Assembly (NCBI RefSeq): GCF_004010195.1 | Contig: NC_057718.1 | Coordinates: 65,533,427 to 65,553,426 of the forward strand | DNA length: 20,000 bases | DNA from: Chiloscyllium plagiosum | Taxonomy: Eukaryota | Direction: 5' to 3' | Shown here: positions 1 through 19,280 of the stretch, in pieces | Layout: each line of letters starts with the position of its first letter | Position numbering within the stretch: the first letter of the stretch is position 1 | The notes under the pieces: model-generated | What the model saw: the letters and a program-made list of their open reading frames with translations, nothing else | Databases searched by the model: none | Told to the model about the DNA's origin: nothing | Made by a program: the position numbers and the translations under genes

Positions 1-283
1 TATAGGGCAAGCCAAACAAAGAACAGCCAGGGAATTCCTAGAAGCATAGCACTCATCCACAAACTCCATCAACAAACACATCGACCTGGACCCAATATAC
101 CGGCCACTACAGCGGACAGCTGAAACTGACAACCGGAAGCGGCAGGGACAGGCCACTATAAATGCCGGAGGAAACACCACAGAAGCGCTTCACAGGAGGC
201 TCCCAAGCACTGAGGATGTCACCTAGACAGGGGACAAAACGTTTGCAACAAAACTTTCCAGCTCGGCGAACACAACCACAACA
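1..283 (+). mobile_element. Penelope-like retroelement 3' end: GIY-YIG endonuclease C-terminus plus pseudo-LTR with hammerhead motif
   Basis: Frame from base 2 reads IGQAKQRTAREFLEA*HSSTNSINKHIDLDPIYRPL, matching the REFLEAWHS...IN.HIDLD.IY type PLE C-terminus (TGG>TAG stop). A hammerhead-like motif follows at 207-246. Confidence 0.8.
207..246 (+). ncRNA. Degenerate minimal type I hammerhead ribozyme in PLE pseudo-LTR
   Basis: gca (stem I), CTGAGGA (210-216), gtcacct/agac/aggggac (stem II), aAAAC-GT-t, tgc (stem I). The core GAAA reads AAAA. Confidence 0.7.
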
Positions 284-425
284 GTTCAAACAATAAAGGT
301 ATTTGAGCATTTTAAAATTGTGCTTTATGTGCAACAGATGGAGGCAACTAACAGTAGTTTAATGTAATTAAACTAGGAGAGAAAAATAAGATGAACAGAG
401 TAAAATTTAGAGCAAAAGTACATGT

Positions 426-2559: not shown

Positions 2560-2781
2560 TTCACTGCCCATACTAATGTTTAGCTGTTTCATTGTGAAAA
2601 CTTCTGTTATTTTAATTTACCCTGGCCTCTACTTTGGCACATTTTCTACTTTTGTTCTTTTTGTGCTCTCTCCTCCACTACTGCCTTAAATCTTGAATTT
2701 GTATTTCTGTTCATTTCTGATGAAAGACCATTAATCTGAACTCTGCAGAGAAACAGATTCTAGTTGATCTGAATTTTCCCA
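2560..2781 (+). mobile_element. Old PLE pseudo-LTR remnant with decayed hammerhead
   Basis: Pyrimidine-rich tract, then ttCTGATGAaagaccattaatctGAActct (core 2717-2723) and a decayed cagat...gatctg motif. Same layout as 7903-7999. Confidence 0.5.
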
Positions 2782-3575: not shown

Positions 3576-3649
3576 GCAGGATCTAAAAGTTGAAGTTCTG
3601 AATTGGAGGAAGGCTAATTTTGACTGTATTAGGCAAGAGCTTTCAAAAG

Positions 3650-3812
3650 GAGAAAGTGAGGGCTGCAGATGCTAAAGATCAGAGTCAAGAGTGTGGTGCT
3701 GGAAAAGCGCAGCAGGTCAGGCAGCATCCAAGGAGCAGGAGAAAAGATGTTTCAGGCATAAACCTCATGAAGGGCTTATGTCTGAAATGTCAATTCTCCT
3801 GCTCCTTGATGT
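3650..3812. mobile_element. Short non-autonomous PLE/retrozyme-like palindromic insert with 15-bp TSD
   Basis: Flanked by aagagctttcaaaag (3635-3649) and aagaactttcaaaag (3813-3827). Inverted repeat 3725-3811 is centred on tcatga, with a hammerhead stem II and GAAA on both strands. Confidence 0.8.
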
Positions 3813-4606
3813 AAGAACTTTCAAAAGTTAATTGGGGGCAGATGTTCACAGATAAAGGAACGGCTATAAAATGGGAAGCCTTCAGAAATGAGATAACGAG
3901 CATCCCCAGAGACAGTATATTCTTGTTTGGGTGAAAGGAGAGGCTGGTAGGTGCAGGGAATGCTGGATGACCAGAGATGTTAGGTTTTAGTCAAGGAAAA
4001 GAAGGAAGCATATATCAGGTATAGACAGGATAGATTGAGTGAATCTTTAGAGTGTAAAGGCAGTAGGATTATACTGAAGAGGGAAATCAGGAGGGCAAAA
4101 AGGGGACATGAGATAGCTTTGGCAAATAGGGTTAAGGAGAATCCAAAGAGATTTTATAAACACATTTTAAGGACAAGAGGGCAACTATGGGTAGAATAGG
4201 GTCCCTCAAAGATCAGTAAGGCAGCCTATGTGTGGAGCCACAGGAGATGGGGGAGATACGAAACTAGTATTTTGTATCCATGTTTACTGAGCAAGATATA
4301 GAATGTGGAGAAATAGATGGTGACATCTTGAAAAATGTCCATATTACAGAGGAGGATGTGCTGGATGTCTTGAAATGCATAGACATGGATAAATCCCCAG
4401 GACCTGATCAGATGTACACTAGAACTCTGGGAAGCTAACGAAGTGACTGCTGGGTCCCTTGCTGAGATAGTTGTATCATCGATAGTCACAGATGAGGTGC
4501 CAGAAAACTGAAGGTTAGCTAACATGGTGCCATTATTTAAGAAAGATGTTAAAGAAAAGCCAGGGAACTATAGACAGGTGAGCCTGATGTCAGTGGTGGA
4601 CAAGTA

Positions 4607-7281: not shown

Positions 7282-7562
7282 TTCCTTGCTTCTATATTCA
7301 GTGTCCTGGCTAATGAAGTGCATCTTCTTGTATGATCCCTTCACTCTGGTTAATTGTGCTGATACCTTCAGGGATCTATGGACTTGTACACCAAGGTCCC
7401 TCTGTTCCTCAGTACTTCCTCGGGACCTACACTTCATTGTGTATATCTTTCCTTTATTAGATGTCCCAAAATGCATCACTCCTCTCTTATCCGGATTAAA
7501 TTCAATCTGACATTGCTTTGCCCAATTTACCAGCTGTTCAATATCTGACTGGAGCCTGAGAC
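7277..7562 (-). mobile_element. Older CR1-clade LINE (antisense), segment 2
   Basis: Minus ORF LQSDIEQLVNWAKQCQIEFNPDKRGVMHFG...EQRDLGVQVHRSLK...EYRSKEV. Confidence 0.9.
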
Positions 7563-7653
7563 TCAAAGAACTGTGGATGTAGGAAATGAGAAACAAAAAC
7601 AAATTAGTGGAAAGTTCCAGCAGGTCTGGCAGCATCTGTGAAGAGATGTCTAA

Positions 7654-7690
7654 GTTTACATTTCAGGTTGAGTTACACTTCCTCAGAACT
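7654..7690 (-). ncRNA. Minimal type I hammerhead-like motif (left arm)
   Basis: Minus strand reads agtt CTGAGGA agtgtaactcaacct GAAA tg TA aact. Confidence 0.6.
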
Positions 7691-7902
7691 CTAGGTATGA
7701 ACACCTTTGAAGTGCTGCTCCTCTCTCTGACCGGATTTCTCTTCCAATCATTTTCCTTGTCCACCGTCCTTAATTTCATTATTGTTCCTGGTGTTCAACC
7801 AAGGTATTTGATAAAACTCTCTTCCACAGCCCATATTGCATTCCTCAGTTATTGTCTCCACCTCAGATTCATCCCATATAGTTTACAACTTCAGTTTCAC
7901 AA

Positions 7903-7938
7903 AGTTCTGAGGAAGTCAGTTGACCTGAAACATTAACT
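7903..7938 (+). ncRNA. Minimal type I hammerhead-like motif (right arm)
   Basis: agtt CTGAGGA (7907-7913) a gtca gt tgac ct GAAA (7927-7930) ca TT aact. Confidence 0.6.
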
Positions 7939-8009
7939 CTGATTTTTCAACATAGCTGCTGCCAGATCTGCTGAGTTTTTCTATCAATTTTATTTTTGTA
8001 GCCTGAGAC

Positions 8010-8365
8010 CATTCTCTTCACTCCACTTCAGTTTTCATGCCATCTGCCAACTTATAATTACACTTTCCACATTCAAATTCCTGGAATTCCAATCTGCAAG
8101 GAATTGTGGGTCAACCTACAGCGTGTGGACTGCAGTGGTTCAAGAAGGCAGCTCACCACCATCACCACCTTAAGGCACCTAAGGACAGGCAGTAAATGCT
8201 GGCCAGCCAATACTGACCATCCTGATCAATTCCTTTCCAAGCATTGATGAATTCTTCTTTGAGAAATTTTTCCAATAATTTCCCTACCATTGACGTCAGA
8301 CTAGGTAGTCTGTGTAATTACCTGGCCTGTCCCTGTTTTCTTTTTTGAACAAAGGATGAATGACC
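8010..8365 (-). mobile_element. Older CR1-clade LINE (antisense), segments 3-4, internally deleted and interrupted
   Basis: Minus strand gives KLADGMK (decayed KFADDTK) at ~8035-8055, and PLFKKENRDRPGNY...LTSMVGKLLEK at ~8265-8360. Confidence 0.75.
8079..8221 (+). mobile_element. 3' end of another shark LINE family
   Basis: tggactgcagtggttcaagaaggcagctcaccacc...aaatgctggccagcc matches my recall of a common elasmobranch LINE 3' end. A decayed relative is at 15510-15748. Confidence 0.6.
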
Positions 8366-9129: not shown

Positions 9130-9447
<318 letters not shown>

Positions 9448-9925: not shown

Positions 9926-10422
9926 ATCATGAATGTCGATGAATTGTTTTCTTTCAACTTTTTTTTATTATTTTGAGGACATGAAGGTTTGGGTACATCA
10001 GTTCTCTTGTTGACTTGCTCTTTTTAGTGTCACAGGGTCATTTCCACTTTCCTTTCAGTAAGGGAGAGCAGTTTACGAAGGAAGGCTGAATCAGAACTCT
10101 TACCGGGAGATTTTCTTTTTGTTACTTCACCATACAGGAGGGATGTAGAAATTTAAGGATTTTTAAACTCGTTTGCAGACTGATGTTTCTTAATTTGCTA
10201 CATAAACAGTTCAGCCATTTTGTCTACCGTGCCGCCCCCACTGCTTGAATAAGACAACATTGTGGATGCAATTCACAATGAGTCATCCACAGCTCTTGGT
10301 TGAAAGCTGTGTCTTTTCCTAAGTGGTCTTTTATTTGAATGAAGGCTTAGGATTGAGTTTGGCATTCTCGTGCCTCCTCTCTGCTGCATACCCCGTTCGC
10401 CTGGCTCAGTTTCATCCTGGTA

Positions 10423-15748: not shown

Positions 15749-15825
15749 GGTAGGAGAAAAAGTGGTGGCGAGGTACAGATACAGGGAGAAAGTCCAGATT
15801 TTCCGATAGATGGGAAAGGATTTTT

Positions 15826-16126
15826 TTAGACTAGATTCCCTACATTGCGGAAACAGGCCCTTTGGCCCTCCAAGTCCACACCGACCCTCCAAAGAGTAAC
15901 CCACCCAGACCCATTCCTGTACTCCCTACTAATGCACCTATCACTGTGGGCAATTTAGCATGGCCAGTTCACCTGACCTGCACATCTTTGGACTGTGGGA
16001 GGAAACCCACGCAGACACTGGGAGAATGTGCAAACTCCATGCAGACAGTTGCCCAAGGCTGGAATCGAACCCGGATCCCTGGTGTTGTGAGGCAGCAGTG
16101 CTAACCACTGAGCCACTGTGCTGCCC
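15826..16126 (-). mobile_element. HE1-like tRNA-derived SINE
   Basis: Minus strand begins gggcagcacagTGGCTCAGTGGttagc (A box) and has GGTTCGATTCC (B box). Homologous to 426-725. Confidence 0.9.
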
Positions 16127-16362
16127 TGGTGATGGACAGGTCAAGAGGGCAGTGCCAAGTTGGAGGCTCTGGACTGGGATAAGGTGGGGGGAGTTGTGGA
16201 AACTGGTGAAATCCACATTAATCCCATGTGGTTGCAGGGTCCCAAGGCAGAAGCTGAGGCATTCTTCCTCCAGGCGTCGAGTGGTTAGGATTTGACAATG
16301 GAGGAGGCACAGGACCTACGTGTCCTTGGTGGAGTGGGAGGGCGAGTGAAATGTTCAGCCAC
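16127..16362 (-). mobile_element. Penelope-like element GIY-YIG C-terminal fragment
   Basis: Minus strand with one frameshift reads VAEHF..PSHSTKDT*VLCLLHCQILTTRRLEEECLSFCLGTLQPHGINVDFTSF, a typical PLE VA.HF...HS...LGTL.P.G.N end. Confidence 0.8.
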
Positions 16363-17296: not shown

Positions 17297-17364
17297 AACG
17301 TCGATTCTCCTGTTCCCTGGATGCTGCCTGACCTGCTGCGCTTTTCCAGCAACACATTTTCAGC
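17297..17364 (+). mobile_element. Fragment of the hammerhead-bearing PLE/retrozyme-like family
   Basis: 17305-17351 is the reverse complement of 3697-3743 (45/47 identical). It starts at aacgtcgatt, the 3' end of the hammerhead core. Confidence 0.8.
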
Positions 17365-17447: not shown

Positions 17448-17750
17448 AATCATAATCATAGAACCCCTACATTGTGAAAGCAGGCCATTCAGTCCATTGA
17501 GTCTACACCAACCCTCCAAAGAGCATCCTACCTAGCCCCAACTCCCTAATCTATCCCTGTAACCCTGCATTTCTCATGGCTAATCCACCTCATCGGCACG
17601 TCTTTGGACTGAGGGAGGAAACTGAAGCATACCCACATGGACACTGGGAGAATATGCAAACTCCATGCAGATAATCATCCAAAGCTGGAATGAAACCAGG
17701 TTCTGTGGCGCTGTGAGGCAGCAGTGCTAGCCACTGAGCCACTGGGCTGC
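17448..17750 (-). mobile_element. HE1-like tRNA-derived SINE (older or different tail variant)
   Basis: A box TGGCTCAGTGG and B box GGTTTCATTCC on the minus strand. Body is homologous to the other two copies; (aatcat)2 tail. Confidence 0.85.
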
Positions 17751-19280
17751 TCTAAATGGTGACTCTAAGAATGTAAGGAGTAAATTGAGCAGTAGCATTT
17801 ACACCTTAAAAAAAAAACAGAAGTTGCTACTGGGTATACCCTTGGCCGCCTCAGACCTTTGCTGATAGATTTCTTTGCAAAGTCTGGGTAATTGCATTAA
17901 ACACACCAGAGGTATGTGGGACTGCTGTATTCAGGAATAAGTTACTTGTTAAACATTGTTAATTTTACAATTGTGAAGTATCATTCTGTCACACTTTAAT
18001 TTGTTGGAGATAAAAGATTACCAGGAAGTGTAGAAATCTCATTTTGATCCCATCTTTATTTTGCTTTCTGTACATGATTTTATACTCTGATTTAGATCTA
18101 TCTTTAAGAGTTCCTTTGTCCGATTTTTGAGAAATCTTGAAATTTTGTTTCCAATTGACAGTTTAGATCCACTGGAGAGGATGCCATGCTGAAAATAATC
18201 TATCAGTCGTACTAGCCATCATTCAGAAAATTTGCCGGATGTTTTGTAGAAGCTTTTACTGTGCTTTTGATGTTGGCTGCAAAATTTATCCTGTTGTCTT
18301 GTATCCTTGCACAAACCATTTTTTTTTTCAGCTATTGATCCTGTCCCATTTGCTTTTGGCTATTGTTTGAGGTAAAACCAGTATTCACAATTTCAGAATC
18401 CTATTCACAACTAAGCTGAGCTGGGAGCCATATCTTCTCTGCCACCAAGATCCTCCATACTGTCTATCATTGACTGCTGGAATTCTTATCCATCTATTTG
18501 TTATTGCTACCGCAAATGAAGAGTACAGAAGGAATATTGCAGTGAGGCCACAATAATTAAAAGTCAGGAGTTTTAACTTGGACTTTTGTCCTCCTCTCAG
18601 GAGCCATATGTCATTGAGCACAGGTGTAATGTGTGATGGAATTTTGAGAAAATTAAGACATGACCAACATGGTTTTGGATGAATTAAAGTTTGTGGAAAC
18701 ATTGGAATATAAGTCTACCACATCTCTGCACTCTTCGAAATTTGGCCTCTTATTCCTAATTTACCCCACCCAATCATTCAGCTGTTTTAAATTTCTCCCT
18801 TAATCTCAGGCTCAAATCGCTTATATCGCTTATAAAATACTGATCAATAAACTAGGTTTTTAAAAAAAGCTTGCATCCTAGTATTGCCTTCTGTTGTCTG
18901 CCAAACATAGTTAGTTCTGTGAGGCATTGTGGAGATTAATGCCACATTACAAATACGAATAGTTGTATGGAAATGGTTAACTTTCTACTCGTGCCATATA
19001 GCTGGTTGTAATTGACTTCCTAATACTCTTACAAGCAATTGAATGCACTTCCCAATACATAACTGGCAAAACGCAATCATTGTACATGAATAGGTTTCTT
19101 TCGCACATTTTCCAAACTTCAAATCCTATCCCACAAATACACAATAATCTTTAGTGGACTGGTATACCTATTATAATATCACTAGATACAATGCAGTGCT
19201 TTATGTAATAATTGGGCTGAAATTCACTGACATTTTAGTAATGCAAACCAGCAAACCAGTAATGGTAAAACAGCTAACAT

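Follow-up and report, generated by a model that had tools for sequence, protein, structure and literature searches.

A 437-bp head-to-head insert in the Chiloscyllium plagiosum genome as the probable product of a single old Penelope-like insertion

In the shark Chiloscyllium plagiosum, a short insert with two inverted arms, each carrying a hammerhead motif, interrupts an older repeat, and the question arises which kind of event produces such a structure. The insert comprises 437 bp at positions 7563-7999 of the stretch of 20,000 nucleotides that was analysed (contig NC_057718.1, positions 65,533,427 to 65,553,426), which is referred to as the window throughout. An initial annotation had taken it for one insertion of an RNA-mobilised unit, either a derivative of a Penelope-like element (PLE) or a self-standing, MITE-shaped family that could cleave itself from either strand.

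Target site, host repeat and arms

The insert resides within a fragment of a CR1-type LINE (RT region). The left part of this host fragment (7339-7562, minus strand) can be aligned with further CR1 copies of the window, and by tblastn the LINE-RT part of the protein P0030 matches it at 7554-7429 (E 3e-6); beyond the insert, CR1 alignment lets the fragment resume at 8010-8140 (minus strand). When the flanks are joined, they align continuously with two of the three other CR1 copies of the window that were tried (scores 167.5 and 148, against a poor 52.5 for the third), in agreement with the earlier proposal that the host CR1 continues across the insert. The alignment is blind to whether one or two copies of the target-site duplication (TSD) are retained (167.5 versus 166.5; 148 versus 149) and favours one or two copies over none in two of the three comparisons. 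Four of the 24 contig pieces listed represent CR1 paralogues, and their match breaks off at 7562-7563.

The TSD, to which no strand is assigned, is as perfect as originally described: 7553-7562 and 8000-8009 are identical at 10 of 10 positions, for which the chance is about 1.3e-6 per placement and 6.5e-4 over the 11x46 (506) boundary placements. It can be lengthened to 13 bp with one mismatch (12/13; 7550-7562 and 7997-8009). As the two well-aligning CR1 paralogues read TGTA at the extension, just like the right copy, the TSD may be 13 bp long with one later change.

A very abundant short repeat (8077-8200, depth up to 443,905) starts about 70 bp past the right TSD, and an exon at 9191-9354 (plus strand) encodes a SAM domain closest to that of CNKSR2 (Pfam E 3e-12; PDB E 7e-25). 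The insert probably sits in an intron upstream of this exon in a CNKSR-type gene. Elsewhere in the window, two CR1 3' ends lie tail to tail at 829-2013 and form a 1.2-kb inverted pair at 70%, and a 300-bp SINE-like repeat is present in three copies that are 66-76% alike (425-716, 15825-16127 and 17459-17753).

The arms of the insert are arranged head to head. The left arm (7593-7693, minus strand) has the character of an inverted PLE end (pLTR), the right arm (7900-7999, plus strand) that of a PLE end in sense orientation and lacking a tail; both have helix I of the hammerhead as their 5' boundary. Positions 7593-7690 align against 7903-7999 with an E value of 1e-7, and the 100 columns of the arm alignment contain 71 matches, 26 substitutions and three gaps, such that 27% of the aligned sites differ. 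This corroborates the inverted pair as such. Its symmetry did not hold up: 30 extra bases (7563-7592, minus strand) extend the left arm and are missing from the right one, so that the inverted repeat stops short of the left terminus and leaves a 30-bp overhang. This one-sided extension, or tail, belongs to the abundant arm family, as the depth of the bin 7559-7595 is 18,238-32,311. Both arms hold CTGAGGA...GAAA; their start, originally placed at agttCTGAGGA and thus four nucleotides upstream of the core, had to be moved to about seven nucleotides upstream (7693 and 7900). The CpG behind GAAA has decayed differently, to TG in the left arm and to CA in the right one, as had been noted.

With arms that are 27% diverged and belong to an extremely abundant family, two independent insertions of arms in opposite orientation might flank a fragment by chance. 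A single TSD pair nevertheless encloses the whole unit and CR1 resumes beyond it, the centre is not CR1, and the asymmetry of one tail fits a single event, which makes us regard a double insertion as very improbable.

Abundance and layout of related copies

Contigs from three DNA runs and reads from one RNA run (four of 24 runs) were placed on the window at 80% likeness; the summed depth obtained in this way is not a copy number, and copies that are less than 80% alike are invisible to it. Depth amounts to 24,692-307,623 in the arm bins (up to 307,623 in the left arm, 24,692-54,464 over 7929-8002 in the right arm). Within the 206-bp centre (7694-7899, plus strand), it is 106-617 over 7707-7780, a low-copy repeat, and 12-37 over 7781-7891, which is nearly single-copy at 80% likeness; the locus's own contigs account for about 10. 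Across all three DNA runs, the smallest ratio between the arms and the centre (7781-7891) is 1,165. From about 6% of the single-cell RNA run X22, not a single read was placed.

Contigs that join separate places of the window point in the same direction. Among the best 12 of 140 rows of joints with other letters between the two sides, 11 connect a place in the left arm with one in the right arm across 2-32 other letters, and a variant of the core start is present in six of these 11. With sides of just 18-33 letters in the joints listed (15 of 289), single rows are weak; together they show that head-to-head arms with varied centres occur elsewhere in the genome. The window itself contains a second head-to-head insertion of hammerhead arms at 3650-3812. 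It is built from a sister subfamily, has no centre and bears a tail on the left arm only; it lies in another CR1-like copy, with a TSD of 15 bp (14/15; copies starting at 3635 and 3813; total span 3635-3827). TSD lengths therefore vary, from 10-13 bp at the 437-bp insert to 15 bp here. A single arm of the sister subfamily is found at 17297-17362 (plus strand), cut near the end of the hammerhead core, and a CTGATGA core followed by decayed arm-like sequence at 2717-2753 (plus strand) is possibly another PLE end. Viral contigs yielded no locus with the arm motif; metagenome contigs yielded 24, which were all dismissed as chance since blastn aligned none to the insert or the window.

On this evidence, an abundant PLE end would make up the arms, and what lies between them resembles a rare filler and not the core of a fixed MITE-like family. 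The idea of a self-standing, MITE-shaped family thus found no support: the depth of the centre is far below that of the arms, and different centres occur between the arms in other contigs. The MITE reading deserves consideration also in its stricter sense, namely as a DNA transposon with terminal inverted repeats that resemble hammerheads by chance. MITEs are short and have inverted ends and a TSD, all of which are present in the insert. The ends of the insert are, however, asymmetric with 30 bp protruding at the left terminus, arms occur singly (17297-17362) and around centres that are not common to the copies, TSD lengths differ (10-13 versus 15 bp), the sister arms appear to follow PLE endonuclease ends and the arms are RNA-derived. 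In our view, a DNA transposon is hardly credible.

The insertion is not recent. A contig from organism B (X9 record 23) covers 7507-7979, and two from organism C (X19 records 15 and 16) cover 7382-7647 and 7618-8142; they span the insert junctions at 3.8-5.3% difference. Since both organisms carry the insert, the insertion is older than their split. An empty site was found neither in these two relatives nor among the joints listed (15 of 289). At the eight sites listed, the differences of the left arm are private when compared with the family majority. A TSD preserved at 10 of 10 positions beside arms that are 27% diverged has a probability of 0.04 at equal rates (0.10 for 12 of 13). Better preservation of the TSD than of the arms slightly favours arms that already differed at the time of insertion, a mild tension that is not decisive.

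Hammerhead motifs and relationship to Penelope-like elements

Each arm contains what is left of a minimal type I hammerhead. In the left motif (7650-7693, minus strand), the core is located at 7686-7680 and GAAA at 7664-7661, helix I retains five contiguous pairs and helix II is unfolded. In the right motif (7900-7941, plus strand), the core is at 7907-7913 and GAAA at 7927-7930, and six of seven pairs of helix I are present. While the two hammerheads of the initial annotation are recognisable as motifs with intact core letters, they have decayed. In both, U replaces C11.1 and the pair closing helix II (G10.1-C11.1) is lost, and the palindrome for a dimeric helix III (15.2-16.2) is broken. In addition, the right motif lacks two nucleotides of helix II (GG) that are present in other copies, with GG inserted behind 7914 in 2, 10 and 11 contigs. 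Neither motif folds better than shuffled sequence (z +1.2 and +1.1), and Rfam at E<=1 finds no hammerhead in the insert and two chance-level matches elsewhere in the window.

For RNA across the insert, folding predicts a single long hairpin (-123 kcal/mol, z -5.3); in a read-through RNA the arms would pair with each other and bury the sense hammerhead motif. As the motifs are on opposite strands, they would not form a hammerhead dimer within one RNA. In vitro, minimal PLE hammerheads show no cleavage as monomers and little as dimers (Cervera 2014, PMC4209133). Given the lost helix III palindrome and helix II closing pair, the opposite strands and the pairing of the arms, self-cleavage from either strand, as originally suggested, is not upheld, and hammerhead cleavage at the insert, as predicted from its sequence, is unlikely. 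Minimal hammerhead pairs on opposite strands, 100-700 bp apart, are known (Cervera 2014, PMC4209133) and share with the insert this spacing and orientation, the core boxes, an extra nucleotide after position 9 and the lack of a real helix III; the insert differs from them in that the 15.2-16.2 palindrome and the G10.1-C11.1 pair are lost by decay.

The connection between the arms and a PLE reading frame runs via the sister subfamily. At 16115-16351 (minus strand), beside a SINE-like repeat, the window preserves a 3' UTR and the C-terminus of a PLE GIY-YIG endonuclease that is Neptune-like and interrupted by one stop. In a HMMER search, 16187-16351 (minus strand) matches the C-terminus of shark RT/GIY-YIG proteins (up to 64%), with homologues in whale shark, zebra shark and skate records. 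These homologues have a cysteine-rich linker before the endonuclease that by eye resembles the Neptune rows of Fig. S2 in Craig 2021 (PMC8557442). For P0013 and P0016, two of the predicted RT/GIY-YIG proteins from sharks, the read-through resembles the sister-subfamily arms at 3650-3812 and 17297-17362 (E 0.002-0.02, 1-kb database), and these arms share 25 of 29 distal bases with the left arm of the insert at 7563-7999. The link from the latter to a PLE ORF is indirect and weak, leading through the sister subfamily without a direct match; the stronger argument for considering the arms as PLE ends is their architecture. PLE protein profiles yielded no loci in viral or prokaryotic contigs. Two further places of the window are reminiscent of PLEs: 1-290 (plus strand) has the appearance of a further PLE, presumably of the Poseidon type, represented by its endonuclease end and pLTR with a hammerhead-like core at about 210-240, and 10184-10394 weakly matches the tail of the insert as well as the endonuclease end of P0013 with its read-through (E 1e-5) and is probably another decayed PLE end.

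The 23-residue peptide reported for the interior is indeed encoded there (7832-7900, plus strand), and, with one stop and two frameshifts allowed for, two other frames upstream prolong the protein-like stretch as far as about 7710. The centre presumably resembles the N-terminus of shark PLE ORFs and is possibly the decayed 5' end of such an ORF, whose start the initial annotation had placed there. A word search with the read-through peptide, a short and decayed query, returned one candidate and none at E<=10. When 40 fetched proteins, whose predicted starts appear to lie downstream of the extreme N-terminus, were compared with the whole window, the centre was not matched at E<0.05, and the one weak match of the centre on the 1-kb database (E 0.012) is out of register and falls into the endonuclease-linker region. 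Canonical N-termini of PLE ORFs are not contained in the available portions of the supplement to Craig 2021 (PMC8557442). Local capture of the centre was not found, as it is matched nowhere else within the 20-kb window. That its first third is a low-copy repeat is as expected for the 5' end of an element that is rarely full-length.

Mode of insertion

The layout of the insert is already described for PLEs and does not define a new mobile family. A search that left most subscription papers as well as Repbase and Dfam outside its range found no paper devoted to inverted PLE mini-insertions in sharks. In Craig 2021 (PMC8557442), PLE insertions are described as having a 5'-truncated copy in inverted orientation and, at one of the ends, a tail of 30-40 bp. 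For rotifer PLEs, Arkhipova 2013 (PMC3846280) reports an inverted pLTR, a one-sided tail of 31 bp, TSDs of 8-10 bp and unrelated sequence captured between solo pLTRs. With Pen2/Pen2a_Av (PMC3846280) and with the insertions in Fig. 2 of Craig 2021 (PMC8557442), the insert shares head-to-head inverted ends, a tail on one arm (30 bp here), a TSD of about 10 bp and the state of an internally incomplete derivative; compared with these insertions, it is far shorter, lacks a direct 5' pLTR, has arms that both start at helix I, and contains a 206-bp fragment as its centre. The features found are those of insertions by endonuclease-bearing (EN+) PLEs: head-to-head repeats from an inverted 5'-truncated copy, a tail at one end only, a short TSD of variable length and a decayed minimal type I hammerhead in the pLTR. 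Single TSD pair, interrupted CR1, head-to-head arms and one-arm tail bear out the earlier assignment to one RNA-mobilised insertion event of PLE type.

Biochemical information is available for a PLE protein from Anolis (Frangieh 2024, PMC11167929). In vitro, this protein, a predicted dimer, cuts and extends both strands and starts reverse transcription at two internal sites that are a tail-length apart; it requires the first 172 nt of its own ORF RNA, whereas hammerhead cleavage is dispensable. The element concerned, Poseidon of Anolis (PAc), resembles the insert in that insertions end about 90-125 nt downstream of the hammerhead and that there are two such ends, spaced by the length of a tail. 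The PAc ORF begins within the hammerhead itself, whereas the putative ORF start of the insert precedes the sense arm; the window's PLE remnant at 16187-16351 is Neptune-like. The inserting PLE was probably of the Neptune type.

We favour a single old insertion by a Penelope-like retrotransposon protein, with the centre as filler from a template jump before the two halves were joined, and hold this to be the probable course of events. The GIY-YIG endonuclease would make a staggered cut, 10-13 bp apart, and each nicked strand would prime reverse transcription inside the element RNA. The left arm with its tail would be primed at a distal start site, the right arm without tail at a proximal site 30 nt away. 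Both cDNAs would halt at the first base of hammerhead helix I, be it the 5' end of the RNA or the point of cDNA snap-back. One half would have jumped to another template before head-to-head joining and copied 206 nt, probably from the 5' part of a PLE ORF. The product would have been dead on arrival and have decayed neutrally ever since, with the hammerheads as fossils. That only one arm has a tail, that both end at helix I and that filler occupies the joint is in keeping with both-strand priming and a template jump. Twin priming in PLEs is our inference; judged by title or abstract, none of the papers found to contain both terms has it as its subject.

The same single PLE insertion may have been followed by an internal deletion, leaving the centre as a remnant of a longer copy (inverted pLTR, ORF and 3' pLTR), or the template RNA may have been spliced onto an acceptor at helix I. 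For such deletions there is an example in Arkhipova 2013 (PMC3846280), a rotifer copy with inverted pLTRs, a 10-bp TSD and a microhomology-mediated internal deletion, while the 3' end of the Penelope intron of D. virilis coincides with the 5' terminus of helix I (PMC4209133); the centre, if an ORF start, is in sense with the right arm. On the other hand, a direct 5' pLTR is not present between the inverted arm and the centre, and a random deletion would need to terminate at precisely the base that forms the start of the other arm and of other copies, which is why the template jump is preferred; moreover, any deletion must be old, as organisms B and C share the short form. We consider deletion or splicing somewhat doubtful.

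Non-LTR retrozymes (Cervera 2020, PMC7229834; Li 2026, bioRxiv 10.64898/2026.07.22.740005) are short, non-coding and PLE-derived with a type I hammerhead, just as the insert is; they form head-to-tail tandems with hammerheads on the same strand, whereas the insert is a head-to-head pair on opposite strands. Such elements bring up an old, low-copy non-autonomous family, in which a short or circular RNA with the ORF start fused to helix I, or else the inverted unit in its entirety, was mobilised again and again in one piece; we deem this unlikely. The junction at 7899/7900 would then derive from a short or circularised PLE RNA in which an end within the ORF 5' region is joined to the first base of helix I, an old low-copy family or a stage in the birth of a retrozyme, for which we see little probability. 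With equally low confidence it may be added that such an RNA would have retained the cis-element for mobilisation, the ORF 5' region being the protein-binding part in the Anolis element, and would have been inserted by priming on both cut strands. Repetition of 7707-7780, with 4-14 contigs sharing other letters at 7740, 7741, 7750 and 7769, speaks in favour of such a family, as do the 1-2 contigs per run that share other letters at 7852-7859 and the combination of diverged arms with a perfect TSD (p 0.04-0.10). The source of retrozymes is pLTRs (bioRxiv 10.64898/2026.07.22.740005), the Anolis protein needs those first 172 nt of ORF RNA (PMC11167929), and old copies of a fixed family could fall under the 80% cut-off. 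The depth of the centre is, however, uneven and drops from 106-617 to 12-37 at about 7780, one piece per run bridges 7900 among the 24 pieces listed, the left-arm differences are mostly private at the eight sites listed, as in ordinary decay, and the index of scanned windows contains no look-alike window.

As a neutral fossil, the single locus matters little. It is one data point on how PLEs build inverted ends, and shark genomes contain thousands of comparable insertions, on which both-strand priming could be tested statistically. If the junction at 7899/7900 recurred, it would show a retrozyme-like non-autonomous element arising from a PLE.
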